Source: Patescibacteria group bacterium (GTDB taxonomy: Bacteria; Patescibacteriota; Microgenomatia; Daviesbacterales; UBA10151). From it: a stretch of DNA of 64,000 bases. Below the pieces are notes generated by a model that was not told the origin of the DNA, searched no databases, and saw nothing but the letters and a program-made list of their open reading frames with translations. Shown piece after piece: positions 325 to 52,625 of this stretch (position 1 is its first letter; every line of letters starts with the position of its first letter). The translations under genes were made by a program, and so were the position numbers. The stretch is from contig JAMCSY010000011.1 of the NCBI GenBank assembly GCA_023379125.1, forward strand, positions 5,333 to 69,332, written 5' to 3'.

Positions 325-1389
325 ATGCAAAGCTTCTTGCTTACAGAAATGGAAAATAAATTAAACGAGCTAAAGGCAGACCATTTGCAACAAATTAAAA
401 GAGCCCAAACTCTTCAGGAGTTGGATGATATTTTTCTAAAGTTATTTGGCAAAAATGGCCAGATTACTCTAGTCCCTAAGGACTTTCCTAGTTTACCTAA
501 AGAGGAGTTGAAAACTATCGCTCCTTTATTTAACCAAGTCAAAAATAACTTAGAACAAGCAATCAAGGAACAGCGATCAGCAGTAAGAGAAAAAAGTTAT
601 CAAAAATTAAACGAGGAAGCTTTGGACATTCAACCAGTAGCCTTGCAGCAAAGGTCGGGTTTTATACACCCAGTGATCAAAATAGAAAATGAGATCATTG
701 AGTTGTTTGAAAAACTTGGCTTTTTTAGATTTGAAGCTCCGCAAATTGATTCAGATCAGTATAACTTTGAGTTGCTAAATATACCTGCGGGCCACCCAGC
801 TCGGGATTTATGGGATACTTTATATATTGACTCACAAAAATACGGCATCAATCCTGGACAACTGCTTTTAAGAACACACACCTCTAATGCCCAAGTCAGA
901 GTGATGGAAAAAGTTAAACCTCCTTTTCGAGCCATGATTATCGATCGTTGTTTTCGCTACGAAAATATTGATCCGCGGCATGAACACACTTTGGAGCAAT
1001 TTGAAGTGGTCTTAGTGGAAAAGGGCTTAAGTATGGCTAACTTACAATATCTATCCGAATACTTCCTAAAGAATATTTTTGGCCAAGATATTAAAGTCAG
1101 GATGAGACCTAAATATTACCCCTTTGTGGAGCCAGGAGTAGGTGTAGATGGGGAGTGTATTTTTTGCTATGGAAAAGGCTGTAAAATTTGTGGCGAAGGT
1201 TGGTTAGAACTAGCCGGTGCTGGCATGATCCATCCAAAAGTTCTAAAAAATGGTGGCATTAATCCTCAAGAGTTTTCTGGTATTGCCTGGGGTTTTGGTC
1301 CAGAAAGAATGGCTATGCTCAAATATGGTCTTGCTGATATTAGGATATTTAATAGTGGCAATTTAACTGAATTGGAGAAAATTAAATAA
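325..1389 (+). CDS. pheS: Phenylalanyl-tRNA synthetase alpha subunit
   Basis: 354 aa; class II aaRS motifs (FRFEAPQIDSDQYNFELLNIPAGHPARD, GFGPERMAML); stop overlaps pheT start (TAATG). Confidence 0.9.
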   Translation: MQSFLLTEMENKLNELKADHLQQIKRAQTLQELDDIFLKLFGKNGQITLVPKDFPSLPKEELKTIAPLFNQVKNNLEQAIKEQRSAVREKSYQKLNEEALDIQPVALQQRSGFIHPVIKIENEIIELFEKLGFFRFEAPQIDSDQYNFELLNIPAGHPARDLWDTLYIDSQKYGINPGQLLLRTHTSNAQVRVMEKVKPPFRAMIIDRCFRYENIDPRHEHTLEQFEVVLVEKGLSMANLQYLSEYFLKNIFGQDIKVRMRPKYYPFVEPGVGVDGECIFCYGKGCKICGEGWLELAGAGMIHPKVLKNGGINPQEFSGIAWGFGPERMAMLKYGLADIRIFNSGNLTELEKIK

Positions 1390-3074
1390 TGAAAGTTTCT
1401 ATTAGCTGGTTAAAGGAATTGGTCAAACTTGATAACTCTATCCAGCAAGTTGAGCACCTACTACCCTTAAGAACTATTGGAACCAAAGAAATCGACGAGA
1501 ATTTTTTTGAGCTGGATATGAAAGGCTATAACCGCAGTGATCTACTGTCCATGCGTGGAGTTGCTTATGAAATCGCCGCTATCACCGATGCCACAGTTAC
1601 CTTTAGCGAGACTTTGGACCAAGATTTTATCTGGTCAAACAAAAATTTACCACAAGTTAATGTTGAGGTTTTAGACCCTGACTTAGTCCCTGTCTACGCC
1701 ATTGCCAAGATTGAGGGTCTTGAGGTACAAAACACTCCATCCAATTCAGACTCCGCTAAACAACTTACAGATTGTGGAATGAGGGCAATTAATAATGTGG
1801 TAGATGTGACAAATCTAGTGATGCTGGAATATGGCCAACCTTTACATGCTTTTGATGCTAAGTCAGTCCAGGATGAAAAAATTATTGTCCGTCTAGCCCA
1901 TCCTCAAGAAAAATTGACTACCCTTGATCATAAAGAAAGAGTCCTGGAAAAAACTGATCTTTTGATTTGTGACCCAGCTAAAGCTTTGGGAGTAGCAGGA
2001 GTGATGGGGGGAGCAAATAGTGAGATTTCAGATTCACCATGCACAATTTTGCTTGAGGCAGCCATTTTTGATCCAGTGAAGATTAGGCAAACCTCGCAAA
2101 GACTTGGCCTACCATCTGAAGCCAGCAAAAGATTTCAGCATGGTTTAACTAAAACCAGATTACTTCAAGCTTTAGATGAAGCTATTAGGCAATATCAGGA
2201 TCTAGGTGGTAGACTGACTGCTTTAGCCATTGTTTCTAATTATGAGGACCAGGTTAAACAAGTACATTTGTCCCAGGCAAAAACTAACTCTCTAATTGGA
2301 GTAGTCATAACCAGTCAGCAGATCGAAGATTATTTAGCAAAATTACATTTTAAACTAAAAGTAACTTCAGCAGGTAATTGGGAAGTTAATGTACCTTATT
2401 GGAGATTAGATATCGAGATCGAGGAGGATTTAGTTGAGGAGGTAGCCAGAATGTATGGGTATGAAAATATTCCAGCTCAGCATCTACCTAATTTAAAACT
2501 TAACACTTTAGATCAGACTGATTTAAGAAAAATTGATCAGCTAAAACAAGAGACTGTGACACAGGGTTTAACAGAAATTATGACTTATTCATATTTTACC
2601 AGTGAGGTAATTAATAATCTCCACATTAATCAAGACAGTTTGGTCAAAATTGCTAACCCCATGTCTGCCCAAACAGAATATTTAAGAACAAGACTTTGGC
2701 CAAATTTATTGGAAAAAGCTGCAGAAAATTTAAAAGAAAGAGACAGTTTAGCCATTTTTGAAATTGGTAAAACATACCATCCACAAAACCAGGGTGTACC
2801 CAAAGAGAAAAAAACTTTAGGGATTTTACTGGTTAACCAAACAAATAACCCCTTGGCTGAACTAATCACCATTATCAAACAAATTCCCAGCTTAGTTGAT
2901 CTTACGGTTGAGCAGATTAGTGCAGATAAGAATTTTCATCCCCAGCGCTACTTACAAATTAAAAATAATAGGGGAGAGGTGATTGGTCTGGCTGGAGAAA
3001 TTCATCCCAGAGTAGTTAATCAGTTTGGAGCTGAAAAACGAATTGCAATTATGGAAATTTCTTTAGATGATTAA
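1389..3074 (+). CDS. pheT: Phenylalanyl-tRNA synthetase beta subunit (short form, 561 aa)
   Basis: Bacterial-type N-terminus MKVSISWLKELV; B3/4 and B5-like regions; immediately downstream of and translationally coupled to pheS; about 240 aa shorter than typical bacterial PheT. Confidence 0.8.
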   Translation: MKVSISWLKELVKLDNSIQQVEHLLPLRTIGTKEIDENFFELDMKGYNRSDLLSMRGVAYEIAAITDATVTFSETLDQDFIWSNKNLPQVNVEVLDPDLVPVYAIAKIEGLEVQNTPSNSDSAKQLTDCGMRAINNVVDVTNLVMLEYGQPLHAFDAKSVQDEKIIVRLAHPQEKLTTLDHKERVLEKTDLLICDPAKALGVAGVMGGANSEISDSPCTILLEAAIFDPVKIRQTSQRLGLPSEASKRFQHGLTKTRLLQALDEAIRQYQDLGGRLTALAIVSNYEDQVKQVHLSQAKTNSLIGVVITSQQIEDYLAKLHFKLKVTSAGNWEVNVPYWRLDIEIEEDLVEEVARMYGYENIPAQHLPNLKLNTLDQTDLRKIDQLKQETVTQGLTEIMTYSYFTSEVINNLHINQDSLVKIANPMSAQTEYLRTRLWPNLLEKAAENLKERDSLAIFEIGKTYHPQNQGVPKEKKTLGILLVNQTNNPLAELITIIKQIPSLVDLTVEQISADKNFHPQRYLQIKNNRGEVIGLAGEIHPRVVNQFGAEKRIAIMEISLDD

Positions 3075-6393: not shown

Positions 6394-7068
6394 TCAAGGT
6401 CGTTGAAAGATCGCTACAAACATTGGAATCTTTCTGATTGCTCCTTCAATGACATCAGAGCCCGCTTGCTCTTGTAGACTAATTAATTTGAATCGTTTAT
6501 ATACAGTTAACAACTCATCTTTGGAATATTGTTTTTCAAACTCACCGGTTCGTGGGAAAATACAGCTGTTTGGTTCAGGCCCAGGACTAGTTCTGACAAG
6601 ATCTGTCGTCCCAACTCCATAAAAAAGATAACAACCACCCGGCAGAAGTTTTGTATAAGATTGTTCAATAACCTGTGATCTACCGGGTTGGGGAATACAA
6701 ATTGTTACATTACTGTCAATGATTGCTTGGAAGCTATGTTCTGCAAAAGGCCATTTGTTAGTTATGTCCAGTTGAACAAAAGTTACCTGAGCATTTGCCA
6801 AAGCAGCTCTTTGTCTGGCTACTGATAAACTACCTTCTTCAATAAAATCCACACCTGTTACTTGAAATCCTAACATAGCCAAACCAATACTATTTCTGCC
6901 TTTACCACAGCCTAAGTCAAGAACATGAGTTTTCTCTGGCATAAATCCCTGAGCAATTAAGAAATTAGCAAACTCTACAACACAATTTGAAGGTGTTTCT
7001 GAATGGATCTTAGTAAAAGTACCTCCAGCAGTATGTTCTTCCTGCCAAACTTCTTTTTGGGGCCTCAT
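6394..7068 (-). CDS. Class I SAM-dependent methyltransferase
   Basis: 224 aa; motif I VLDLGCGKGRNS; Rossmann-fold spacing. Confidence 0.6.
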   Translation of the reverse strand: MRPQKEVWQEEHTAGGTFTKIHSETPSNCVVEFANFLIAQGFMPEKTHVLDLGCGKGRNSIGLAMLGFQVTGVDFIEEGSLSVARQRAALANAQVTFVQLDITNKWPFAEHSFQAIIDSNVTICIPQPGRSQVIEQSYTKLLPGGCYLFYGVGTTDLVRTSPGPEPNSCIFPRTGEFEKQYSKDELLTVYKRFKLISLQEQAGSDVIEGAIRKIPMFVAIFQRP

Positions 7069-7110
7069 GGCAGAAATTATACTACGAGATTAGTTTTGGA
7101 TAATTTATTG

Positions 7111-7183
7111 TCCTGAGGGTAGGAGTTGAACCTACTTAAAACGGTTTTACAGACCGTCGCCTCAGCCGTTCAGCCACCTCAGG
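7111..7183 (-). tRNA. tRNA-Tyr (anticodon GUA), class I with 5-nt variable loop, C1:G72, A73, CCA not encoded
   Basis: Minus-strand sequence CCTGAGG-TG-GCTGAACGGCTGAGGC-G-ACGGT-CTGTAAA-ACCGT-TTTAA-GTAGG-TTCAACT-CCTAC-CCTCAGG-A folds into a cloverleaf by hand. It has a 7-bp acceptor stem, D-loop with GG, anticodon loop with U33-GUA-A37, and T-loop TTCAACT. Confidence 0.65.
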
Positions 7184-7331
7184 TATCTTCACAATTTTAG
7201 GATCTCTGATCGCAAAAGGCAAGCCTAGTGCTAGTCAATAACAATCTCCCATACTTACCAATTTCATACATAGACTCAATTGACTCGCAAGAGGATATCT
7301 CATACTATTTAAGAGGAAGCTAAATCTGCTC

Positions 7332-8423
7332 ATGGACTTCAGAAAAATCTTTAATTCTCCGGTGCAATTAGAAAGTGGTTTTACCCTTGTTGAATTACTC
7401 ACAGTCATTACAATCATTGCTGTTTTAGGAATTGCAGGAGCACTGGTTTATAACTCAACTCAACAGAAGGTTAGAGATGCCAAACGAGCCTCTGAGATCA
7501 AAACAATTGCCTCAGCTGTAGCCACTTCTAAAAATTTCACAACCAATTCTTATCTTTATGCGGCCACTGACGAAAATAAAGATTTCCAAAGTGGAGTACC
7601 TGATGACCCTAATGCCTCTCGACATTACTGTATGTCAGTTAGCACTACCAATTTTGACCCTCCGAGTGTTTGTGGTAGTAACTGGAGTACTGGCTGCCCA
7701 ACCACATCTCAGTGTGGTGGAGCAACTTATGTTGATTTACCAACTGCTCTAAATAGTCTGGCAAAAACTAGCCCAGCAGTTTTATCCTGGACTATTTGTG
7801 CCTCTTTGGAAAATAGTAGTACTCCTTATTGTTTAAGCAACTATACCCTGGGAGGGGATGATCTAAAACCTGTCATTTACCTCTATCCTCCACAAGAAGA
7901 AAATATCACAGTTAAACTAAACTATTTAGGAGCGATCGTCACTAGCACACCGCTTTACGATACTGCTATTCCCGGTTGGTCAGTTAAAGCTACTCCTGAT
8001 GGTAAAATTACTGATCCAGTAACAGGTAAAAGTTATCAGTACATTTATTGGGAAGGCAAGCCTTTAAGCACAAGTTATGATTTGACAACAGGTTTTGTAG
8101 TTCCAGGCAATGAGTCTGCTCAATTTCTAACTGACGAACTACGTAAAATAGGTTTAAATGATGATGAGTCGCAGGAGTTTATGTCTTTTTGGTTACCAAG
8201 GATTCAGGGCAATAAGTATAATCTGATTCATTTTGCTTCAACTGAATATACCAGTCGTGCCCAGTTGAATGTTGAACCACAACCAGAAAGCCTACTCAGA
8301 GTCTTTATGGTTATCAAACCATTAGAACAAACTTCTACCATTACTCCCCAGACATTTACCAAGTTTCAAAGAAAAGGTTTCACCGTGGTAGAATGGGGAG
8401 GCACGATAGTTTCACCATTTTAA
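7332..8423 (+). CDS. Large type IV pilin-like protein (prepilin leader + 330-aa Cys-containing C-terminal domain)
   Basis: 363 aa; MDFRKIFNSPVQLESG|FTLVELLTVITIIAVLGIAGALV class III signal peptide; downstream RDAKRASEIKTI motif typical of T4 pilin N-domain. Confidence 0.65.
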   Translation: MDFRKIFNSPVQLESGFTLVELLTVITIIAVLGIAGALVYNSTQQKVRDAKRASEIKTIASAVATSKNFTTNSYLYAATDENKDFQSGVPDDPNASRHYCMSVSTTNFDPPSVCGSNWSTGCPTTSQCGGATYVDLPTALNSLAKTSPAVLSWTICASLENSSTPYCLSNYTLGGDDLKPVIYLYPPQEENITVKLNYLGAIVTSTPLYDTAIPGWSVKATPDGKITDPVTGKSYQYIYWEGKPLSTSYDLTTGFVVPGNESAQFLTDELRKIGLNDDESQEFMSFWLPRIQGNKYNLIHFASTEYTSRAQLNVEPQPESLLRVFMVIKPLEQTSTITPQTFTKFQRKGFTVVEWGGTIVSPF

Positions 8424-8447
8424 CTGCGGGTGCTATGATATTTTGGC

Positions 8448-9755
8448 ATGACTGACAGCCCGGATACTCAAGAAAACAATTCTCAAAAACGTATTACTAC
8501 AACTCGTCGAAAATTGTTAGTTGCGACAGCAGCTGCTACACCGACTCTTTTGGCTGCTGGTAATTTAGTGAAAGCTTTTGTCCAGGAGGCAAATAAAGCA
8601 AATACTCCGTATAAAGCACCAACAAAAAATCCTCCCACTGCCACGCCAGCTACTCATACTCAATCAGAAAGAGTGATTGCAACAACCCCAACTGTCTCTG
8701 CTAATATTACAGAAAAAGCACCTATGGAGAATCCCTTGCAGCAGGTGCTTAAATTGCCTCTAGAATCTAGTGAGAGACAAAGCGCAGAGGCAGATATTGT
8801 GACCAAGGCGCAAAGCTTGCAGCAAATCGATCAAGCTTTGTGGGTTGTTAATAATATGAATTTAAGAGCTCAATTAATCGAAAAAAGGTATCAACTAAGA
8901 TCACAACGCAAGGATAATCTAAAACCTCTAAATCAAGCAGAAACTAAATGGGCCCTAGACCACGAACTTCACCCAGAAGATATTGCAATTGCCCAAGAAG
9001 CCTACACTAAGGCCAGCACAATTATTGCCAACTTACTGACTGATAAAAGTCACCCTTTTCGGCCTGACATTGATCTACAAATCCAAAGAGGCAGACTACC
9101 TCAATCTTCTCAACAACTCCTCTTAGCCCAACAAATGATGATCAATAGTGGTGGTATGGCTACTTTGTTATCCACAGAAACTGGAGTGGGCAAACAATTC
9201 CAGATTCACAAAGCAGGAGAAAGTAGGATTGTTTCCGTGGCTTTAAGCAATATTGGCCAAACTCCAGCCATCCAGGTAAACAAGCTTTATAGTGAAGAGA
9301 AAAAGCAATCTCAATATCAACAAATGGCTGATATTTTTCAGCACACCACAGGTTTAGTAATTTCATCTGAGCAAATTCCTGGATCTGGAGGTCAAGCTCC
9401 TGGGGACATAAGTGGGGGAGCAGTTTCCGTGCAAATGTTACCAGACTCGATATTGGATATTGAGCAAGATGTTTACCGGGCTACTGGAAAATACTTGAAT
9501 TGGGCAGACCCAGTAGAGAGTGTGGCTCTGGCTTATATTTTCTTAGCCAAGGGCTGGTTGGTTGGACAAGGAGCTCGCTTTGGGTATTGGCGGGGGACAG
9601 TCATAGACCCAAAACAGGGTAACGATGTGGCAGAGGCAATGCGTCAAGATGCTCTAGCTAAGTGGAATCAAGATCAACAGCAACAAAAGAAAATACTCGA
9701 CGCTGCAAATAGCTACTATGCGAAGATTATCGCACTTAATATTTCTAGTTACTGA
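8448..9755 (+). CDS. Hypothetical secreted protein with Tat-like signal (TRRKLLVATAAATPTLLAAG), Gln-rich C-terminus
   Basis: 435 aa ORF; RRxLL twin-arginine-like N-terminus followed by hydrophobic stretch. Confidence 0.45.
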   Translation: MTDSPDTQENNSQKRITTTRRKLLVATAAATPTLLAAGNLVKAFVQEANKANTPYKAPTKNPPTATPATHTQSERVIATTPTVSANITEKAPMENPLQQVLKLPLESSERQSAEADIVTKAQSLQQIDQALWVVNNMNLRAQLIEKRYQLRSQRKDNLKPLNQAETKWALDHELHPEDIAIAQEAYTKASTIIANLLTDKSHPFRPDIDLQIQRGRLPQSSQQLLLAQQMMINSGGMATLLSTETGVGKQFQIHKAGESRIVSVALSNIGQTPAIQVNKLYSEEKKQSQYQQMADIFQHTTGLVISSEQIPGSGGQAPGDISGGAVSVQMLPDSILDIEQDVYRATGKYLNWADPVESVALAYIFLAKGWLVGQGARFGYWRGTVIDPKQGNDVAEAMRQDALAKWNQDQQQQKKILDAANSYYAKIIALNISSY

Positions 9756-11572
9756 TAAGCCCGAGCTTGTAATCTAAATAATGAAGCATATTTACCATTA
9801 AGTTTCATTAACTGCTCATGATTACCAGACTCTGTAATCTTGCCTTTATCTATCACATAAATCCGATCTGCATTTCTGACAGTAGAGAAACGATGGGAAA
9901 TAATAATGACACTTTTCTCGCGAGAGAGTTTTTCCACTCGACTAAAAATTTCTGCTTCTGCCTTAGCATCAATTGCTGATGTAGGCTCATCTAAAACCAA
10001 AACAGGAGCATTTCTCAAAAAAGCTCTGGCTAAGGCAATCCTTTGCCATTGCCCAGTAGAAAGTTCAGCACCTTTTTCCCAATTTCTACCTAACATTTGC
10101 TGATAACCAGCGTCTAACTTTGAAATCATCTCATGAGCCCCAGCAGAAGTAGCAGCAGTAATAATTTCTGGTAGTTCAATATGGCGATGGATATCACCAA
10201 AATTAATATTTTCTTCAACAGTATGCTCGTACCTGTTAAAATCTTGAAACAGTACTCCTACATTTTGATACCAACTTTCCAAGTTAATTTCTTTCAGGTT
10301 TTGACCATTAATCAGAATCTCACCTTGAGAAACATCATAAAAGCGGGTTAGCAGCTTTATGGCAGTAGTTTTTCCAGCTCCGTTTTCTCCCACAAAAGCA
10401 ATCTTTTCTCCAGGCTTAATTACTAAAGAAAAATCTTTTAGTGAGTTCTTTTTGCTATCCGGATAAGTAAAGTCAACATTTCTAAACTCAATTAAGGGAG
10501 CTTTCTTCAAGCGAGGCAAAATTGTTGCATGAGGATCAGAGGTAATAATCGGCTCTGTATCCAAGACATCAAAAATGCTTTGAATATACAGACTGCTTTC
10601 ATAGATATCGTTTAAATTCCGAAACAGCCCACCTAAAGAATTTTGAAAATTACCAATTATTCCACCGTAAAAACCAATATCACCAACTGTGAGTTTTTTC
10701 ACTAAGACTTGTACTATGACATAAAATTGAATCCCGATTAAAACTCCAGCTGATAAAATTCCGAATAAAGCACTTGATAGGTACTCCTTTTTGGCAATCT
10801 GGGTATTTTCCCGATAAAATTTTTCTTGAGTTTCTTTAATCTCTTTCAAAAACTTATCCGCCAGCTTAAACAGTTTAATCTCTTTGATCCAATGGCTGCT
10901 CTGTAAAATATAGGACAGGTAAAAAAAGCGTTTTCTTTCCGGTGTGTTTTTACTCCAGATTCCCCAAGATAACTTGGAGTGATAAGTTTGCTGGATAAAC
11001 TCGGGCACAGCAATCGCTAAAATTAGGGGGATCAGTAACCAGTTTAGCCTAGCTACAATCCCCAACGTGACACCAATTTGAATTACTCCTTGCATCACTA
11101 ACAAAGCACTGTCCACAACCCGTGGGGGACGAAAATTCGCACTGTCGCGAACCTTGTCTAGCAAGTCATTAAAATCACTGTTTTCAAAGTACTGCACATC
11201 TAAGTGCGCAGTCTTTTTATATAAAACTTGATTTAAATAAATGGGGAACTTGGTCCACAGCAGGCGATGGACAAAATTTTGAGTATTAAAAGCTAGATCA
11301 GAAATAAAATATACTGCTAAACTTAAGCCTAGTAGTAAATAAAGCTGGTTCCAATTAATCGCTGATTGATTTAAAGCACTCACCACAAAATTAATAATTA
11401 GCTTGGCGATATAAGCATTTAAAAAAGGAGTCACTGACGGGACAAGTACGACTACTGCCGAACCAATAAACATCCGCCGGTCAACCTGCCAAGTCAATTT
11501 AAGCAGTCTAAAAGTGGTAATAAAAGTATCTTTAAATTGAGCTGTTTTATTAATATTTCCTGTTTTTTCCAT
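9749..11572 (-). CDS. ABC transporter, fused permease/ATP-binding protein (type I exporter, MsbA-like)
   Basis: 607 aa; six N-terminal TM segments; Walker A GENGAGKTT, signature LSTGQWQRIALARA, Walker B VLVLDEPTSAID, H-loop SHR. Confidence 0.85.
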   Translation of the reverse strand: MEKTGNINKTAQFKDTFITTFRLLKLTWQVDRRMFIGSAVVVLVPSVTPFLNAYIAKLIINFVVSALNQSAINWNQLYLLLGLSLAVYFISDLAFNTQNFVHRLLWTKFPIYLNQVLYKKTAHLDVQYFENSDFNDLLDKVRDSANFRPPRVVDSALLVMQGVIQIGVTLGIVARLNWLLIPLILAIAVPEFIQQTYHSKLSWGIWSKNTPERKRFFYLSYILQSSHWIKEIKLFKLADKFLKEIKETQEKFYRENTQIAKKEYLSSALFGILSAGVLIGIQFYVIVQVLVKKLTVGDIGFYGGIIGNFQNSLGGLFRNLNDIYESSLYIQSIFDVLDTEPIITSDPHATILPRLKKAPLIEFRNVDFTYPDSKKNSLKDFSLVIKPGEKIAFVGENGAGKTTAIKLLTRFYDVSQGEILINGQNLKEINLESWYQNVGVLFQDFNRYEHTVEENINFGDIHRHIELPEIITAATSAGAHEMISKLDAGYQQMLGRNWEKGAELSTGQWQRIALARAFLRNAPVLVLDEPTSAIDAKAEAEIFSRVEKLSREKSVIIISHRFSTVRNADRIYVIDKGKITESGNHEQLMKLNGKYASLFRLQARAYQ

Positions 11573-11577
11573 AATTT

Positions 11578-11721
11578 ATAAGCTTCCCCAGACTGAAAAG
11601 TCCGGGGTTTTTCTCTGGCTAGCTTTCAAGCGCTTCGCTACCCGTTTGCCGGTAAAGCTTGAAGCCTACTTCGTCTACATCCACGAGCTGAGAGCTCGTG
11701 GTTTTGACGAAGCGGTTATAA
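11578..11721. repeat. Structured intergenic repeat, family 1, copy 2
   Basis: Contains the GNRA-loop hairpin CCCCAGACU-GAAA-AGUCCGGGG. A nested hairpin CCACGAGCU-GAGA-AGCUCGUGG is enclosed by the outer stem CTTCGTC..GACGAAG. Lies in the divergent region between the ABC exporter and tyrS. Confidence 0.7.
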
Positions 11722-11796
11722 TCATACCAAATATATCCCAAAATTAATTCCAAAACAGTCTGTGATTATAAGCATTTTTAGGATATAATCATAAAC

Positions 11797-12921
11797 ATGA
11801 CTACTGATGAGAAGCTGAGCTTGATTACTAGAAATTTGGAGGAAGTTTTAACAACTGACGAGTTGAGGAAACTATTAGAGTCAGGTACCCCTCTAAAACA
11901 CTACATCGGCTTTGAAATCTCTGGTAAGATCCATGTTGGCCAGGGGATTTTAAGCATGATGGTGATAAAAAATCTCCAAGAGGCAGGAGTAGATATTACA
12001 GTCTATTTAGCTGATTGGCACACCTGGCTTAATAAAAAACTAGATGGTAATTTGTCCACTGCTTCTAAAATGGCCTTGCAATATTTTGCCGAAGCAATGA
12101 AAGCTTGCGCTCTGGTAGTTGGTGCAGATCCAGAAAAAATAAAGTTCCTTTTAGGAAGCGAATTTTATAAGGCGAAAGGTCTAGATTATTGGTCCACAGT
12201 TATCAGAGTATCAAAAGAAACAACTCTCGCTAGAATGCTCAGATCTACCACGATTATGGGAAAAAAGGAAGAAGATATTACTGATTCAGCAATGTTGATC
12301 TATCCAGCGATGCAGTCAGCAGATATCTTCACGATGGGCGTTAATTTAGCACATTCTGGGACAGATCAACGGAATGTACATGTAATTGCTCGAGAAAATG
12401 CGGTTAAGCTAGGTTTTGATAAACCAATTGCCCTACATCAACATTTACTCTTAAGTCTATCCAAACCTGATGTTTGGCCCATCCCAGAGGGGGACAGAGA
12501 AGAATTAGCTCAGTCCATGAAAATGAGCAAGAGCAAACCCGATAGTGCCATTTTTATTCACGATAATCCAGATGAAATCAGAAGAAAGATTAAAGAGGCT
12601 TTTGCTCCAGAAGCAGAGGCTAAATATAATCCTATTTTGGATTGGACTAAATATTTAGTTTTTGGGTTACAAAGCGAGTTTACTATTAAAAGAGCGGAGC
12701 AATATGGTGGTAATGTTACTTATTCTTCATATGAGCAGCTTGAAAAGGACTACCAGCAAAAGAAACTTTATCCACTGGATTTAAAGAATGCTTTGGCTGA
12801 GTGGTTGATTAAAAAATTGGAGCCAGCCAGAACTTATTTTGAGGACCCTCAAAGACAACAAGCTTTAGCAGAAATAGAAAAGTTAACTTTGACGAAGCGA
12901 TATAATATTAAAAATGGATGA
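11797..12921 (+). CDS. tyrS: Tyrosyl-tRNA synthetase, archaeal/eukaryotic type
   Basis: 374 aa; HIGH-region YIGFEISGKIHVGQG matches archaeal TyrRS YIGFEPSGKIHLGH rather than the bacterial form; KMSKS present. C-terminus GGNVTYSSYEQLEKDYQQKKLYPLDLKNALAEWLIKKLEP closely resembles recalled M. jannaschii TyrRS. Confidence 0.75.
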   Translation: MTTDEKLSLITRNLEEVLTTDELRKLLESGTPLKHYIGFEISGKIHVGQGILSMMVIKNLQEAGVDITVYLADWHTWLNKKLDGNLSTASKMALQYFAEAMKACALVVGADPEKIKFLLGSEFYKAKGLDYWSTVIRVSKETTLARMLRSTTIMGKKEEDITDSAMLIYPAMQSADIFTMGVNLAHSGTDQRNVHVIARENAVKLGFDKPIALHQHLLLSLSKPDVWPIPEGDREELAQSMKMSKSKPDSAIFIHDNPDEIRRKIKEAFAPEAEAKYNPILDWTKYLVFGLQSEFTIKRAEQYGGNVTYSSYEQLEKDYQQKKLYPLDLKNALAEWLIKKLEPARTYFEDPQRQQALAEIEKLTLTKRYNIKNG

Positions 12922-13021
12922 TTTAGTCAGAAAATATCGTTGGGTCTGGATTATTTTAACCATTGTTGGCACTGTTGCCATCTTAATTTTTTCACTCTTA
13001 CCACTTTTCTCAGCCTACTAG
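12914..13021 (+). CDS. Possible small membrane protein (35 aa, MDDLVRKYRWVWIILTIVGTVAILIFSLLPLFSAY)
   Basis: ATG overlaps tyrS stop (ATGGATGA); single TM helix; below the ORF-track length cutoff; unverified. Confidence 0.25.
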   Translation: MDDLVRKYRWVWIILTIVGTVAILIFSLLPLFSAY

Positions 13022-13039
13022 TAAAAGTATAATGCCCTC

Positions 13040-15067
13040 ATGCAGCTTGATACACCTCTTTCTGCCTTAATGGGCATTGGTCCAATTTTACTATCTAGGT
13101 TAAAAAAACTAAACCTTAATACTGTTGAAGATTTATTGAATTATTATCCCTTCCGCTATGAAGACTACTCACACATTTCTAGTGTGATGCAAGCCCAAAG
13201 TGGAGAAAAATTAACTTTATCAGGAGAGGTTTGGTCAATTGGTAATACTTATACTAAATTCAGAAAAGTCTTAACTAAAGCAATTTTTAATGATGGCAGC
13301 GGACCAATTGAGATCATTTGGTTTAACCAACCTTGGCTTATCAAAAGTATTACAAGTGGTGATAAACTGCAGATTTCTGGCAAAATCAAGAAAACTCGCT
13401 CGAAAATCCAAATTATTTCACCACAGTGGGAAAAACTTCAAGCTTTTTCCAATCAACAATATAATATCCACACAGGTAGGTTAGTTCCAGTTTATTCAGA
13501 AACTTATGGTCTAACTTCAAAGTGGCTAAGAGCCAAAATTTCTCAACTTTTACCCAATATGTTACCAAAAATAATAGATTACCTGTCAGAAGAAGTAAGA
13601 CAAGACATGCTAAGTCTGCCTGAAGCAATTACCCAAATACATTTTCCTGCTAATCTAGATGAAGCAAAGAATGCTTACCAGAGACTTGCTTTTGACGAAC
13701 TATTCCTGATTCAACTTGCTACTCTCCGACAGAAAGCCAGTTGGCAAAACAAAACAACCACTTACCCAATTGAAATTAACTCTGTAAAACTAGATCAATT
13801 TATCAATGATCTACCCTTTAGATTAACTAACGCTCAGCTGCGCGTGATCAAAGAAATTAGCCATGACCTAAGTCAGGGTACGCCAATGAATCGTTTAGTG
13901 CAAGGAGAGGTAGGGTCGGGCAAGACCGTCGTGGCCGCCGCTATCATATTTTTAACCTACCTAAGTGGACTCGGCTCAGTGGTGATGGCCCCTACAGAAA
14001 TTCTAGCTTTCCAGCATTATCAAACTTTAGACAAGCTATTAGGCCCATATGGGATCCAAATTGGTTTGTATACAGGTAGTAAGAAGTTTACCAAGCAAAA
14101 CATTAAACCAGAAGTAATCGTCGGTACACATGCTTTACTCTCCGATCAACTGAGCCTAGCAAATATCGGCTTGGCAGTAATTGACGAGCAGCAGCGGTTT
14201 GGTGTTGAGCAAAGAACAAAACTCCGACATAAGGCAAAAGTTCCACATTTTTTAACAATGACCGCTACACCAATACCACGTACAGTCGCCTTGACGCTTT
14301 ATGGTGATTTGGATTTGTCAGTGATTGATGAACTACCAAAGGGTAGAAAAGTTGTTCGAACATATTATGTACCCGAAAGCAAAAGAGCCGATTCTTATCG
14401 GTTTATTGAAAATGAGGTAAAAAATGGTTCACAAGTATATATCATTACTCCACTTATTGAGCAGTCAGAAACACTTCTTTCAGCTAAGGCTGCTAAAGTT
14501 GAGTTTGAAAGATTAAGCAAAGACATTTTTCCCAAGCTACGACTTGGCTTATTACATGGTCGGCTAAAATCCAAAGAGAAGGAAAAAGTGATCGCTGATT
14601 TTAAATTGCATAATATCGACATTCTTGTGTCAACATCTGTTGTGGAAGTAGGGGTTGATGTTCCTAATGCAACAGTCATGGCAATCGAAGGTGCGGACAG
14701 GTTTGGACTTGCCCAATTACACCAGCTTCGCGGCAGAGTAGGGAGAGGTGAAAAAGAATCGTTTGCTTTCTTGTTCGCTGAGGATAGTACTTACCCAGCA
14801 ATTTCCCGCTTAAAAAACCTGGAGAAAATTCACGACGGTCTACAACTATCAGAGTTAGATTTGCAAATTCGCGGCAGTGGGCAAATCTACGGGACAATGC
14901 AAAGTGGTAGTTGGGAGTTAAAAATCGCTTCTTTGACTGATCTAAATTTGCTAGAGAAAACGCGCAATTTTGCGCAAAAAATCTTGCAAGCAAGCCCCAA
15001 TCTTGACAAATACCCTCAACTTAAGGCAAAATTGACCAAGACTTTAGCAGAAGTTATGCCTGATTAA
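13040..15067 (+). CDS. recG: ATP-dependent DNA helicase RecG
   Basis: 675 aa; wedge/OB N-domain; helicase motifs GEVGSGKT, DEQQRFGV, MTATPIPRT, QLHQLRGRVGRG. Confidence 0.9.
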   Translation: MQLDTPLSALMGIGPILLSRLKKLNLNTVEDLLNYYPFRYEDYSHISSVMQAQSGEKLTLSGEVWSIGNTYTKFRKVLTKAIFNDGSGPIEIIWFNQPWLIKSITSGDKLQISGKIKKTRSKIQIISPQWEKLQAFSNQQYNIHTGRLVPVYSETYGLTSKWLRAKISQLLPNMLPKIIDYLSEEVRQDMLSLPEAITQIHFPANLDEAKNAYQRLAFDELFLIQLATLRQKASWQNKTTTYPIEINSVKLDQFINDLPFRLTNAQLRVIKEISHDLSQGTPMNRLVQGEVGSGKTVVAAAIIFLTYLSGLGSVVMAPTEILAFQHYQTLDKLLGPYGIQIGLYTGSKKFTKQNIKPEVIVGTHALLSDQLSLANIGLAVIDEQQRFGVEQRTKLRHKAKVPHFLTMTATPIPRTVALTLYGDLDLSVIDELPKGRKVVRTYYVPESKRADSYRFIENEVKNGSQVYIITPLIEQSETLLSAKAAKVEFERLSKDIFPKLRLGLLHGRLKSKEKEKVIADFKLHNIDILVSTSVVEVGVDVPNATVMAIEGADRFGLAQLHQLRGRVGRGEKESFAFLFAEDSTYPAISRLKNLEKIHDGLQLSELDLQIRGSGQIYGTMQSGSWELKIASLTDLNLLEKTRNFAQKILQASPNLDKYPQLKAKLTKTLAEVMPD

Positions 15068-15192
15068 CTATTTTATCAGGATAGAAAAGTTGCATATAGA
15101 ATTAATAAATAAGGAGGTCTCGGTGATGGACGATCCGGCGGTGAACATTTTTTAAGCTGCAGGAAGATATGTCCGGATCCGTCCAAATCTAG

Positions 15193-15393
15193 GTGTCTCA
15201 AGAACCAAAAAGAAAACATAGTAAAATGCGCAAGCGGACAAGACGCGCTTCGATCATGTTGAAAAACATGGGACTTGTTTTATGCACGAATTGCCATGAG
15301 CCAACTTTGTCACACCAAGTGTGTAAAAGTTGTGGTTTCTATGATCAAAAACAGGTTAACATTAAAACTGAGGTTAAGGTAACTAAAGCCTAA
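15193..15393 (+). CDS. rpmF: 50S ribosomal protein L32
   Basis: 66 aa; PKRKHSKMRKRTRRA N-terminus and CxxC..CxxC zinc ribbon (CTNCHEPTLSHQVCKSCG). Confidence 0.8.
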   Translation: MSQEPKRKHSKMRKRTRRASIMLKNMGLVLCTNCHEPTLSHQVCKSCGFYDQKQVNIKTEVKVTKA

Positions 15394-15434
15394 AAAGTCA
15401 TTCCATCAGTCAATAGTCCAGTCAAAATCAACTA

Positions 15435-15842
15435 ATGAAAACCTCCAGTGACCCCCGCCACAAAAATCGTATCAGGCTAATGAAATCTTTATTTGCTTGG
15501 GACTTTCACAATCAAGATGACGACCTGGATAATTCAGCTAAAGATGTCATCAATCATATTGAATTGATTAATAGTGAGATTGGCAAAGCAGCTGCTCAAC
15601 GACCCTTGAAAGAGATTAATAAAATCGATTTAGCCATTTTACGGTTAGCAGTTTATGAATTGTTAGTCCAACCAAAACTTCATAGCCAAACTAGAGAAAA
15701 AAATGTTCCCTATAAAGTTATCACTGATGAGTCTGTTGAACTGGCTAAAGAGTTTGGTTCAGAGTCTAGTCCAAGTTTTGTAAATGGAGTCCTAGGGAAT
15801 ATTATTTCCGAGCATCATCTTGACGAACTGGGCTCAATTTAG
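15435..15842 (+). CDS. nusB: Transcription antitermination factor NusB
   Basis: 135 aa; signature AILRLAVYELL. Confidence 0.75.
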   Translation: MKTSSDPRHKNRIRLMKSLFAWDFHNQDDDLDNSAKDVINHIELINSEIGKAAAQRPLKEINKIDLAILRLAVYELLVQPKLHSQTREKNVPYKVITDESVELAKEFGSESSPSFVNGVLGNIISEHHLDELGSI

Positions 15843-15894
15843 GGCTTGCATTTTTCCCAACTAATAGATTTTAATAATCTAAGTATTTAAATTT

Positions 15895-16131
15895 ATGGCC
15901 GATCAAAAACAAATCATTGAAGCTATTGCCCAAGCCTTAACTTTACCAGAAAGTGATATTGACCTGGATTCTTCTCTGCAAGATGATCTAGGGCTAAATC
16001 CAGTAGAGATCGCTGATTTACTGGGAAGTCTATCAAAGGAGTTTAAAATCTTCTTTGAACAATCAGACGTGACAGGCTTAAAAACAGTGGGTGATTTAGT
16101 TGTTTTAATAGAAGATAAGTTGTTAGAATAA
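15895..16131 (+). CDS. Acyl carrier protein-like protein lacking the phosphopantetheine-attachment Ser (DLGLNPVE instead of DLGADSLD)
   Basis: 78 aa, acidic, aligns by eye with ACP helices II-III; Ser36 equivalent is Asn; conserved acpP-rnc neighbourhood. Confidence 0.55.
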   Translation: MADQKQIIEAIAQALTLPESDIDLDSSLQDDLGLNPVEIADLLGSLSKEFKIFFEQSDVTGLKTVGDLVVLIEDKLLE

Positions 16132-16155
16132 TCCTGCACTACCTTCTTTAATTTT

Positions 16156-16866
16156 ATGAGCGCAAATCTTGATGAATTTAGGCAGATACTGGAAAAATTA
16201 GGCTTAACGCCGACTAAAAACCCCTGCTACCAGACAGCTTTTATCCATCGTTCATATCTGAATGAGGCCAAAAATATTTCTAAATCTAATGAAAGGTTAG
16301 AGTTTTTAGGCGACTCTGTACTTTCTTTGATTGTTTCTACAGATCTTTATCAATCTCACCCTCAGGATGAGGAAGGTGAATTAACTAACTTACGAGCGTT
16401 TGTAGTCAAGACAGATTCTCTGGCAAAGGTCGCTCGTAATTTAGGACTGGGTAAGTTTTTAATGCTCTCAAAGGGAGAGGAGCTTTCGGATGGCCGAAAC
16501 AACACCCAAATTTTGGCTAACACTTATGAATCAGTTCTGGGAGCGGTATATTTAGATTTAGGACTCAACAGTGCCCGTAAATTTGTTGAGTCTACCTTAT
16601 TATCGTTTTTCCGCGAGGAAGTCGAAAAAGGGGCCCCTAAGGACCCTAAAAGCCAACTCCAGGAAGTGGCTCAGAATATTCTACAGTCAGCACCAAAATA
16701 CAAAATTCTACAAACTAGTGGCCCCGACCATGCTAAACATTTTACTGTTGGGGTGTTTTTACAAGGTCATCAAGCAGGAGAAGGTAGTGGCCCCAGTAAG
16801 CAACAGGCCGAAGAGATGGCTGCTCAACAAGCTTTAGAATACTTAGCTCAGCAATCCAAGAGTTAG
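16156..16866 (+). CDS. rnc: Ribonuclease III
   Basis: 236 aa; signature ERLEFLGDSVL; C-terminal dsRBD. Confidence 0.9.
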   Translation: MSANLDEFRQILEKLGLTPTKNPCYQTAFIHRSYLNEAKNISKSNERLEFLGDSVLSLIVSTDLYQSHPQDEEGELTNLRAFVVKTDSLAKVARNLGLGKFLMLSKGEELSDGRNNTQILANTYESVLGAVYLDLGLNSARKFVESTLLSFFREEVEKGAPKDPKSQLQEVAQNILQSAPKYKILQTSGPDHAKHFTVGVFLQGHQAGEGSGPSKQQAEEMAAQQALEYLAQQSKS

Positions 16867-17055
16867 TTAATCCTTAAGCTTGCTTTCATGAGCGTGCCTA
16901 TGGTAGTATGTGACAACGTTTAACTAATCTGGATTATGTTAGACAATGTCATAATTAAAGATAGTTGTAGACTTAAATGTTTAGCGGAAGGTGGCAAGTA
17001 ACTTTTAAGGTAAGACTTGAATAAGGCAGTTAGTACCCAAAAAGTTAAAAATTAT

Positions 17056-17550
17056 ATGTCTGTAAAAATAAGGTTAATGCGTATTGGCAACAAGAAACGC
17101 CCTTTTTATCGGGTGGTAGCTGTTGATGAGAGAAAAAAACGCGGGGGAGAATACATCGAAGCACTGGGGACTTATAATCCTCTAACTAAACCAAAAGAAA
17201 TTAATATTCATCAAGACCGTTTAGATGCTTGGAAAAAACAGGGAGCCATTTTCTCTGATGGGTTTTTAAGAATCATTGGACAAGCTCCACAAAGGCCACC
17301 ACGTAAACCCAAAAAAGTCAAGAATACACCTGCCGAGAAAGTAGCTACTGAGCCAGAACCTTCGGTAAACACTGAGTCATCCGCCAATGAGGAAACAGTA
17401 GTAACTCAACAAAATCCAGCAGAGGGTACAGCAGCAAGTTCTACAGCCGCAGAGTCAGCTAATCAGACTAGCGATGAGGGGCACGAGGCAAGTCCTGATA
17501 CAAGTAGCGAGGTCAAGCAAAGTGACGAAGTAAAAGAAAAGGATAAATAA
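17056..17550 (+). CDS. rpsP: 30S ribosomal protein S16 with about 80-aa low-complexity acidic/Ser-Thr-rich C-terminal extension
   Basis: MSVKIRLMRIGNKKRPFYRVVAVDERKKRGGEYIEALGTYNP matches S16; ORF-track start at 17017 is probably spurious, ATG at 17056 preferred. Confidence 0.8.
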   Translation: MSVKIRLMRIGNKKRPFYRVVAVDERKKRGGEYIEALGTYNPLTKPKEINIHQDRLDAWKKQGAIFSDGFLRIIGQAPQRPPRKPKKVKNTPAEKVATEPEPSVNTESSANEETVVTQQNPAEGTAASSTAAESANQTSDEGHEASPDTSSEVKQSDEVKEKDK

Positions 17551-46343: not shown

Positions 46344-46374
46344 CAAACTGTGAGTTTTTTGTTAAACTATATCC

Positions 46375-46590
46375 ATGAAGCGTTTTGAAAGGTATGTTGC
46401 TGCCTTTTTTATTAGTTATTTTTTCATTGGATTGCTTTTTGCTAGCCTTTATGCTCTGTTTTACCATTGGAGTGCTTTTTCCTTTTTTAGCCCTGGATTC
46501 TACATGGTTTTACTAACCTGGCCAGCTCAGCTACCCGGTTTTTTTGCTGATTTTCAATATTATGGTTTTGCTGGAAAAACTTTGCCCTAA
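46375..46590 (+). CDS. Small hydrophobic protein (71 aa, 2 TM, Phe/Tyr-rich)
   Basis: ORF only. Confidence 0.3.
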   Translation: MKRFERYVAAFFISYFFIGLLFASLYALFYHWSAFSFFSPGFYMVLLTWPAQLPGFFADFQYYGFAGKTLP

Positions 46591-46612
46591 ATAGTCCAAA
46601 AAAACTGGCTTT

Positions 46613-46894
46613 TTGACTCTTTTTGTGCTACAATTAAAGCCCTTGAGAAAGAAAACTTCTACTAAACATCCTGCCAAGATTTGTGCTGAGTGTGGCAGTG
46701 AACTAATTTTTGTGGAAGAAATCACTATGACAGTTGGCAACGCCCTTTCTCCAGTTACCAAAACTATTTATCATTGTTCTAATCAAACCTGTCAGGAAGA
46801 ATCAGAAAGAAAAGAAGCTCAGCGACGTGAGTTTAGACTACAGCAAGAAACTTTAAAACAAAATCGCCTCAACAACCGTCACAGTACTAAATGA
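46613..46894 (+). CDS. Small zinc-ribbon protein (CAECGSEL..CSNQTCQEE) with basic C-terminus
   Basis: 93 aa; CxxC..CxxxC. Confidence 0.35.
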   Translation: MTLFVLQLKPLRKKTSTKHPAKICAECGSELIFVEEITMTVGNALSPVTKTIYHCSNQTCQEESERKEAQRREFRLQQETLKQNRLNNRHSTK

Positions 46895-47086
46895 ATCCCT
46901 TCCCGCCGTAAACAACTGGGTATCCCTAAAAGGGAAAGTTCTTTCGAGCGTTCATCCACACGGTAAGCCGCAAGGTATTCTCGCCCAAAATAAAGTTCCC
47001 AATCCACACCTTCTGCGAATTTTATACATTTCCCTGCTCTATAAATAAAAGCATGGTAAAGATTTCGCACACTAAAGGTCTGCGCA

Positions 47087-47244
47087 GTTTTGACGAAGCG
47101 GTTATAAGCTTTCCAGACTGAAAGTCCGGGGTTTCCTCTGGCTAGCTTTCAAGCGCTTCGCTACCCGTTTGCCAGTAAAACTTGAAACCTACTTCGTCTA
47201 CATCCACGAGCTCTCAGCTCGTGGTTTTGACGAAGCGGTTATAA
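47087..47244. repeat. Structured intergenic repeat, family 1, copy 3, preceded by a duplicated 20-nt 3'-terminal segment TTTTGACGAAGCGGTTATAA
   Basis: Full copy is about 90% identical to copy 2. The 20-mer occurs at 47087-47107 and again at 47225-47244. Lies 8 bp upstream of nfo. Confidence 0.7.
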
Positions 47245-47251
47245 TAAACTC

Positions 47252-51218: not shown

Positions 51219-52445
51219 CTAGCTATTTCTTCTTACGATACAGTGTAGTTTTTATAATCTGTAGTTGTCAACAGTTTTTGGCATATTTTTTGCAGTTATG
51301 CAAACTAAATAGGGAAGTGTCTAAATCAAGACTTACAAGATCATCAAAATATAATCTCCAATCACGCGTTGCTTAATTCATAAACAACTAGGTAGTTGAC
51401 AACTTATGTTGGAATCAAACTTTAATATTGTGCGACATCGAGAATTTTTATTTATAATCTTACAAACGGCTTTTAAAAACCAAAAATGTTCAAGAAATCA
51501 GGTCTAAGTTAAACATAGTGAAAAAGATCAAAATATAATATTGCGTAATAGCACTAGTTAAAACGACTTTAGTACAAAGAGCGCACATCTTTTAAAACCC
51601 AACAACTAAACCTCAGCTAAATAGTTTTTCTGCTTTAGTCAATACAATCCTAAGAAGAATGTACAAATCAAGTTCTTTACACAATCAGCCATCCTAACCT
51701 ATTTTATCCAAAATAAGACTCCTAGAGGTATTTAGCCTCGAGGCCCGTAAAGGCCCCTAAAACGGCTGGAAACGGGGGAAGATGACTAGTTAGTCATCTA
51801 TAGATTAGACTGTCTCAAAGCCCTAAGTGTTAATTTTAAGAAGTTATTAATAGAGGGGCAAAAATTATCGAAAAAAATTGATAGGAAATTAGTAAAAATA
51901 GGTACAGGTTTATTAAACTTACAAAATTAATTATTTTTTATTAAATACTTTTTTAAAGCAAGTTGACCACTTCTCCGGCTACTAGGCATATACGTCGTCG
52001 TATAAGGTACATTGTGCGACATACTAGTTGGGAAGGCTTGACCCCTCTGAAGAGAGAATGGCCTCTTAATTGAGAAAACAATAAGACGGTGAGGCTAACT
52101 CACTCATGCTACATACATATCTGTGTACCACTACTAGGACTCTCCTCTCAGTAACTATACCTATAGTTTTCACGCGTGGAAACAACTTTGGGTTTTTTAT
52201 AGCAGAGAAATGTAAGAGAGTACTCTGCTCTTGGGTGTGATTGCTTTTATCATGCTCCACGAGCTACACCATATTTTATATTTTCTGGCCTCCAATAATA
52301 CCCTATAATTCTTAGTTATCCACAGTGTACTAACTATATCAGACTGTATCAACTATATTATAGGCTTATAATATTAGCACTCTTCCCTACCTTGTGTTAA
52401 CCTATTATTTTTTGGGTTATCAAATTGTTAACTAAACTACTAAGC

Positions 52446-52625
52446 CTATCCCACCCAAGAGGTTGTGATATGAGCTAAAGCTCTATCACTTTCAGGATAT
52501 GAGCTAAAGCTCTATCACTTTCAGGATATGAGCTAAAGCTCTATCACTTTCAGGATATGAGCTAAAGCTCTATCACTTTCAGGATATGAGCTAAAGCTCT
52601 ATCCCGCCCAAGAGGTTGTGATATA
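52446..52625. repeat. Perfect tandem array: 29-bp unit ATATGAGCTAAAGCTCTATCACTTTCAGG x4 plus a 21-bp partial unit, flanked on both sides by CTATCCC(A/G)CCCAAGAGGTTGTGATAT
   Basis: Direct reading; units at 52468, 52497, 52526, 52555 and partial at 52584; no intervening spacers. Confidence 0.85.

Follow-up and report, generated by a model that had tools for sequence, protein, structure and literature searches.

The 64,000-nucleotide stretch of contig JAMCSY010000011.1 analysed here (the window), from a Patescibacteria group bacterium, carries genes for a tyrosyl-tRNA synthetase (TyrRS) of the archaeal/eukaryotic type and, 4.6 kb upstream of the enzyme's gene tyrS, a tRNATyr with a C1:G72 pair. 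In our reading, to which we give a probability of about 0.9, tyrS is the housekeeping TyrRS gene of a Patescibacteria lineage related to Daviesbacteria, its product works with this cognate C1:G72 tRNATyr, and the gene is of archaeal origin and has since descended vertically. TyrRS, like tryptophanyl-tRNA synthetase (TrpRS), was long held never to cross the divide between bacteria and archaea, as the identity rules for the tRNAs differ (C1:G72 against G1:C72 with a long variable arm, or V-arm). In the Candidate Phyla Radiation (CPR), the archaeal-type TyrRS/tRNATyr system has been known since 2017 and is lineage-wide. An archaea/eukarya-type TyrRS with a C1-G72 tRNATyr was described from Parcubacteria, Microgenomates, Dojkabacteria and Katanobacteria, with DPANN archaea as the proposed donors and Daviesbacteria named among the major bacterial groups of the TyrRS tree in the legend of Figure 2 (Mukai, Reynolds, Crnkovic, Soll, Life 2017, 7:8, PMC5370408; hereafter Mukai et al., 2017). 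The window is a further, species-level member of this system.

The tyrS open reading frame (ORF) starts with ATG and encodes 374 residues (coordinates are collected in Table 1). A first-pass annotation, made from the sequence alone, had proposed an archaeal-type enzyme on the strength of two peptide blocks, one at the HIGH region and one near the C-terminus, and both are present in the translation. The protein scores 422.3 bits against the NCBIfam equivalog of archaeal-type TyrRS (NF006330, cut-off 220), with residues 1-358 aligned to profile positions 1-338 of 342, and for a 374-residue ORF such a score to a curated family is far outside chance. It also passes the general tyrS model TIGR00234 (122.8 bits, cut-off 113.8), yet 300 bits under NF006330, and matches the Pfam family of class I W/Y synthetases, tRNA-synt_1b, at 5.3e-42. 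Its top sequence match in the PDB is P. horikoshii TyrRS (2cyc, 4.8e-115, residues 3-354), followed by 7fg6 from Nanoarchaeum equitans (1.5e-96), by the A. pernix and A. fulgidus enzymes, and then by eukaryotic and M. jannaschii TyrRSs. The bacterial TyrRSs 1h3e and 6bqy align with the N-terminal half alone (residues ~2-219), at ~1e-9 to 1e-10.

The fold tells the same story. An AlphaFold2 (AF2) model with 14 homologues as input (pLDDT 84.3, pTM 0.85) matches 2cyc from end to end, with template modelling (TM) scores of 0.90/0.91 and a deviation of 2.1 Å on superposition, and 7fg6 likewise, with 0.90/0.92. When the model was used for a fold search, all of the top 50 matches were archaeal or eukaryotic TyrRSs. 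Given this full-length agreement and the make-up of the top 50, the C-terminal domain is the helical anticodon-binding domain of archaea and not an S4 domain, which Pfam does not find in the tyrS product either; the archaeal-type C-terminus expected in the first-pass annotation is thereby borne out. The two marks of a bacterial TyrRS (TyrS/TyrZ), an S4-like domain and full-length similarity, are both lacking. The tyrS product is thus a class Ic TyrRS of the archaeal/eukaryotic type, with a Rossmann catalytic domain followed by a helical C-terminal anticodon-binding domain.

Individual residues were mapped by alignment to the M. jannaschii enzyme (MjTyrRS), with a reference sequence that is identical to 1j1u at 306 of 306 positions. 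The tyrosine pocket is kept in Y36, Y169, Q173, D176 and Q191 (Y32, Y151, Q155, D158 and Q173 in MjTyrRS), as is the KMSKS motif (K242-M-S-K-S246). The HIGH-like motif reads H46-V-G-Q49; its His and Gly are invariant across the clade of close relatives described below and its fourth position varies. MjTyrRS reads C1 with Arg174 and also, via water, with Arg132, and reads G72 with Lys175 (PMC1934993); that paper does not mention residue roles at G34. Both arginines that read C1 are kept, as R192 (Mj R174) and R149 (Mj R132). At the anticodon we take Asp286 to be the MjTyrRS residue that reads G34, with Phe261 and His283 presumably stacking on it; these positions are occupied by the conserved D328, by Y303 and by Y325 (codon 12769..12771). 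The residue at the last of these is uncommon in the lineage, as among 120 relatives it is Tyr in two (the other being P0120), Ile in one and His in 114, with three unmatched by the motif search.

The position of Mj K175, the G72 contact, is held by N193 (codon 12373..12375). Asn is found here in 118 of 120 clade members in an unbiased phmmer set, a count that replaces an earlier one of 54/57 from the genome scan, which was biased by having GTDQRNVH among its search patterns. All 22 archaeal (DPANN, Thermococcales), Chloroflexota and Moraniibacteria sequences compared have Lys at this position, and so do the three most divergent CPR members that share the gene order around tyrS (L041, L043 and L080).

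The tRNATyr(GUA) is the sole tRNA gene of the window and, like the CPR affiliation of the host, had escaped the first-pass annotation. From the Rfam structure alignment and the sequence itself, it has C1:G72, the discriminator A73 and a variable loop of 5 nt, and the CCA end is not encoded. It therefore carries the archaeal/eukaryotic identity set and not that of a bacterial class II tRNATyr (G1:C72 with a long V-arm), and it is the presumed cognate substrate of the tyrS product. Within 10 kb on either side of tyrS, the related CPR loci contain four tRNA genes in total, the window's included; all four are tRNATyr, and all four have C1:G72 and A73. Many CPR tRNATyr keep the V-arm and V-arm-less ones occur too (Mukai et al., 2017), and both forms are found among close relatives of the window. 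The V-arm is absent from the window, from L004 and from the metagenome fragment L081, the acceptor stem and T-arm being identical in all three, and a long V-arm is present in L008 and in L056, the closed Daviesbacteria chromosome CP066688.1. Since the tRNATyr gene adjoins the same penicillin-binding protein (PBP) gene in the window (where its strand is opposite), L004 and L056, forms with and without the V-arm share one syntenic neighbourhood. Unlike the window copy, the genes of L004, L008 and L081 encode CCA. When metagenomes were scanned with a pattern for tRNATyr that has C1:G72 and no V-arm, one contig of 1.7 kb (L081) was returned; the pattern was too strict to gauge prevalence, and comparison of the 73-nt tRNA does not separate deletion of the V-arm in situ from import of an archaeal tRNA.

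Searches for relatives place the enzyme firmly within the CPR. An NCBI protein titled 'MAG: tyrosine--tRNA ligase [Patescibacteria group bacterium]' is 100% identical, and the next 119 matches are 61-71% identical, most of the named ones being Ca. Daviesbacteria, to which the nearest relatives, at 62-71%, belong. A genome scan with one genome per GTDB species gave 440 relatives. Of the best 80, about 57 belong to Daviesbacteria, Microgenomates or Patescibacteria and share 54-71% identity; DPANN archaea (Aenigmatarchaeota, Iainarchaeum, Woesearchaeota, Pacearchaeota and Micrarchaeota) follow at 51-54%, and one Moraniibacteria and two Chloroflexota/Dehalococcoidia loci are also included. The gene order tyrS - micro-ORF - recG - rpmF - nusB - acyl carrier protein - rnc - rpsP is kept in ~50 CPR loci from species-level genomes, and tyrS-recG synteny occurs in no archaeal, Chloroflexota or Moraniibacteria locus among the best 80. 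In the closed chromosome CP066688.1, a tyrS of this clade has pheS-pheT-PBP and a C1:G72 tRNATyr upstream, and the recG block is unmatched in the 10 kb downstream of tyrS. A neighbour-joining (NJ) tree, the phylogenetic placement proposed as a check in the first-pass annotation, puts the tyrS product in a 58-member CPR clade that is monophyletic in 81 of 100 bootstraps and stands beside TyrRSs of DPANN/Thermococcales type. With the tree, all three checks proposed there come out in favour of an archaeal-type enzyme, the profiles and the C-terminal domain being the other two. Judged from these sequences, tree and synteny indicate a single old acquisition and vertical descent ever since.

Some of the loci in this comparison are of interest in their own right. 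Two encode archaeal-type TyrRSs that are 51-52% identical to the window protein, one in a Chloroflexota metagenome-assembled genome (MAG; JANNPX010000038.1, L076 10001..11119) and one in a Dehalococcoidia MAG (L078 8580..9671). They pair together and group with archaeal sequences, outside the CPR clade, and neither has a tRNA within 10 kb. The L076 contig has a uniform GC content of 66%, so the TyrRS gene is native to it; its flanking genes are domain-neutral by Pfam, and its bacterial origin rests on the record title and this uniform GC alone. Chloroflexi are not mentioned by Mukai et al. (2017). In Ca. Moraniibacteriota (Parcubacteria; L067 6061..7182), the TyrRS groups with DPANN, has Lys at the G72 contact and lies outside the Daviesbacteria clade, which fits an independent acquisition, in line with published proposals that transfer took place more than once. 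Many third-party annotation (TPA) assembled GTDB records (L003, L007, L009-L013 and others) are titled 'uncultured Gammaproteobacteria bacterium' and share the tyrS-recG-rpmF-nusB gene order of Daviesbacteria, with identities of 55-71%; the titles are evidently placeholder mislabels.

Three other explanations of tyrS were weighed. The best of them, though still improbable, is that the gene encodes an auxiliary TyrRS, such as a copy resistant to stress or antibiotics, beside a canonical bacterial TyrRS/tRNATyr pair elsewhere in the genome, after the manner of TyrZ or of TrpRS-A in some Microgenomates. The window covers 64 kb of the genome, and the archaeal-type TrpRS-A coexists with a bacterial TrpRS in Beckwithbacteria (Mukai et al., 2017), which leaves some room for such an arrangement. 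Yet the window's only tRNATyr has C1:G72, as does every tRNATyr found near a clade tyrS gene, no second class Ic synthetase is encoded in the 64 kb, and tyrS lies within a housekeeping block conserved across ~50 small CPR genomes. Moreover, Mukai et al. (2017) treat the CPR TyrRS as a change in tRNA identity and not as a duplication. We infer that tyrS is the sole TyrRS gene of its genome.

An assembly or binning artefact, in which DPANN archaeal DNA became fused to a bacterial contig, draws on the co-occurrence of CPR and DPANN and on documented cross-contamination of bins. Against it, tyrS sits inside one contig between bacterial genes at an even GC content (0.375-0.39 near the gene, 0.34-0.42 over the window), the same gene order recurs in ~50 independently assembled genomes, and the CPR sequences form a clade of their own, 51-54% identical to DPANN. 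Shared synteny and the CPR clade together exclude a chimera, and this explanation is effectively refuted. A CPR/Patescibacteria host and a bacterial chromosomal context for tyrS are both borne out by the relatives, the flanking genes and the Daviesbacteria synteny. TrpRS is a class Ic homologue of TyrRS, and weak matches to it were seen, but the reading of the tyrS product as a TrpRS, or as a class Ic paralogue with no part in translation (such as a cyclodipeptide-synthase-like or regulatory protein), is effectively refuted by profile scores, which stay under the equivalog cut-offs (TIGR00233, 101.2 bits against 176.75; PRK12285-type models, at most 57 bits against cut-offs of at least 320), and by the retained Tyr pocket, KMSKS motif, anticodon-binding domain and full-length TyrRS fold.

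If tyrS is the resident housekeeping TyrRS gene, its history and action may be sketched as follows. An ancestor of the CPR clade would have taken the gene from an archaeon with a DPANN-like or Thermococcales-like 'long' TyrRS (we infer both the donor and the direction), after which it would have descended vertically, its place on the chromosome beside recG unchanged. By analogy to the complex from M. jannaschii (1j1u), the enzyme would activate tyrosine as a homodimer and choose its tRNA through C1:G72, with R192 and R149 reading C1, through the discriminator A73 and through the anticodon base G34. The last would be read by D328, with aromatic stacking from Y303 and Y325. With no S4 domain in the enzyme to bind it, a V-arm would be dispensable, which would account for its retention in certain lineages and its loss from others.

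Several points weigh against this picture. Charging of tRNATyr by the tyrS product is a claim drawn by analogy, and no later biochemical characterisation of a CPR archaeal-type TyrRS was found in the literature searched. With a view of 64 kb, a bacterial-type TyrRS or a G1:C72 tRNATyr may possibly lie elsewhere in the genome. The NJ tree has a single distant outgroup (MjTyrRS) and so points to neither a donor lineage nor a transfer direction. With N193 at the G72 contact, the enzyme may recognise G72 otherwise than in the archaeal model. Finally, the fourth position of the HIGH motif is Gln and not His; P. horikoshii TyrRS has Thr there (HLGT), so a residue other than His is normal for the subfamily.

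In comparison with known systems, the window has no essential difference from the CPR system of Mukai et al. (2017), with which it shares host group, enzyme type and C1-G72 tRNATyr. Beyond that account are the clade-wide Lys to Asn change at the G72 contact, the presence of both tRNA forms in the Daviesbacteria clade within one syntenic neighbourhood, the preservation of tyrS-recG synteny and the micro-ORF that follows tyrS. The enzyme is of the 'long' archaeal type (~375 residues), equal in length to the P. horikoshii and N. equitans TyrRSs (2cyc and 7fg6; 48% and 44% identity), and shares with them insertions missing from the 306-residue M. jannaschii enzyme. It differs from both in its bacterial host, in having DQRN for DQRK and in an extra C-terminal helix (~351-372, of low confidence at its end). 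Alignment with MjTyrRS (1j1u) gives 130 identities over 305 residues and shows conserved counterparts of R132, R174 and D286 as well as of the Tyr pocket and the KMSKS motif. The differences are the changes K175 to N193, H283 to Y325 and F261 to Y303 and a length greater by ~68 residues. The bacterial TyrRSs (TyrS/TyrZ, e.g. T. thermophilus 1h3e) have in common with it the reaction, a Rossmann core of class Ic and their occurrence in a bacterium. They differ in the S4-like domain, which the window enzyme lacks, and in the partner tRNA, G1:C72 with a long V-arm in bacteria and C1:G72 with no V-arm here.

It is plain from the CPR cases that identity sets are not fixed by the domain of life, a point already made in 2017. 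The value of the window is confirmatory: it is a single-contig example with the enzyme and a V-arm-less tRNA 4.6 kb apart, and the ~50 genomes point to a replacement that is ancient and stable. Modest leads for work on tRNA identity and for the mining of orthogonal pairs come from the Lys to Asn change and from the mixed V-arm status.

The first-pass annotation had also noted a membrane ORF of 35 codons overlapping the tyrS stop, and its placement is correct: the ATG of this micro-ORF overlaps the stop of tyrS by 8 nt (ATGGATGA). Homologues of 33-36 residues occupy the tyrS-recG interval in 53 of ~57 CPR-clade loci (L001-L060 and L080), and none are found in the archaeal, Chloroflexota or Moraniibacteria loci. 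The homologues follow a common pattern, with N-terminal K-K-[YF]-[RK], a single transmembrane helix and an FSLLPL[LF] end, and fall into two subtypes, MD..KKYR and MMYSKKF. The family has no match in Pfam or NCBIfam; at E-values up to 10, Pfam gives one meaningless match of 0.059. Going by this conservation, we take the 35-codon ORF to be a real gene for a conserved micro-protein with a single transmembrane helix. A broader proposal may be put forward, though we regard it as doubtful, in which the imported TyrRS and the resident tRNATyr of the Daviesbacteria clade are still co-evolving (the Lys to Asn change and V-arm loss being its signs) and the micro-protein is functionally linked to tyrS. 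Were the TyrRS and tRNATyr indeed co-evolving, the clade would offer a natural time series of tRNA identity rewiring after synthetase replacement.

Table 1. Coordinates of features in the window and of tRNATyr genes in related loci (positions prefixed with L refer to the related locus named).
Feature	Position	Strand	Evidence
tRNATyr(GUA), 73 nt, class I cloverleaf	7111..7183	-	Rfam RF00005 56.5 bits; ARAGORN (7110..7183)
ABC exporter	9749..11572	-	Pfam
tyrS, archaeal/eukaryotic-type tyrosyl-tRNA synthetase	11797..12921	+	Pfam, NCBIfam, PDB match, AF2 fold, residue mapping
micro-ORF, 35 residues, basic N-terminus and one transmembrane helix (MDDLVRKYRWVWIILTIVGTVAILIFSLLPLFSAY)	12914..13021	+	conserved homologues
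housekeeping block 3' of tyrS: recG, rpmF, nusB, acyl carrier protein, rnc, rpsP (S16)	13040..17550	+	Pfam, synteny
recG (RecG)	13040..15067	+	Pfam
rpmF (L32)	from 15193	+	Pfam
nusB (NusB)	from 15435	+	Pfam
rnc (RNase III)	from 16156	+	Pfam
tRNATyr of relatives	L004 2892..2967; L008 30..114; L056 7211..7294

The genes around tyrS are ordinary bacterial ones, as had been noted for the ABC exporter, recG, rpmF, nusB and rnc, and Pfam agrees. On its 5' side lie both subunits of phenylalanyl-tRNA synthetase (PheRS alpha and beta), a class A PBP and an S-adenosylmethionine (SAM) methyltransferase; elsewhere in the window, trmD, a type IV pilus cluster, gyrB, gyrA and a Xer-type recombinase complete the picture of an ordinary bacterial chromosome. 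A promoter and terminator scan of 6900..15300 gave no excess of sites over shuffled sequence (20 against 19.3 and 9 against 7.0), and the scan is thus no evidence on operon structure. No T-box or other leader RNA was found by Rfam 5' of tyrS, the tRNA being the only Rfam match in the window.

A few minor observations concern other parts of the window. Two intervals, 46344..47251 (~0.9 kb) and 51219..52598 (~1.4 kb), contain no ORF of at least 100 residues and no Rfam match at the gathering threshold. An ORF of 435 residues (8448..9755, + strand) belongs to no Pfam family and has weak matches (26-31%) in three related loci; it is preceded by a pilin-like protein (7332..8423) with an N-terminal methylation motif. 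PheRS beta (1389..3074, + strand) is short, at 561 residues. Its B3_4, B5 and core domains are present, and Pfam shows neither an OB-fold (B2) nor a C-terminal anticodon-binding domain. Many CPR PheRS beta subunits are without B2 (Mukai et al., 2017), and that of the window fits this pattern.

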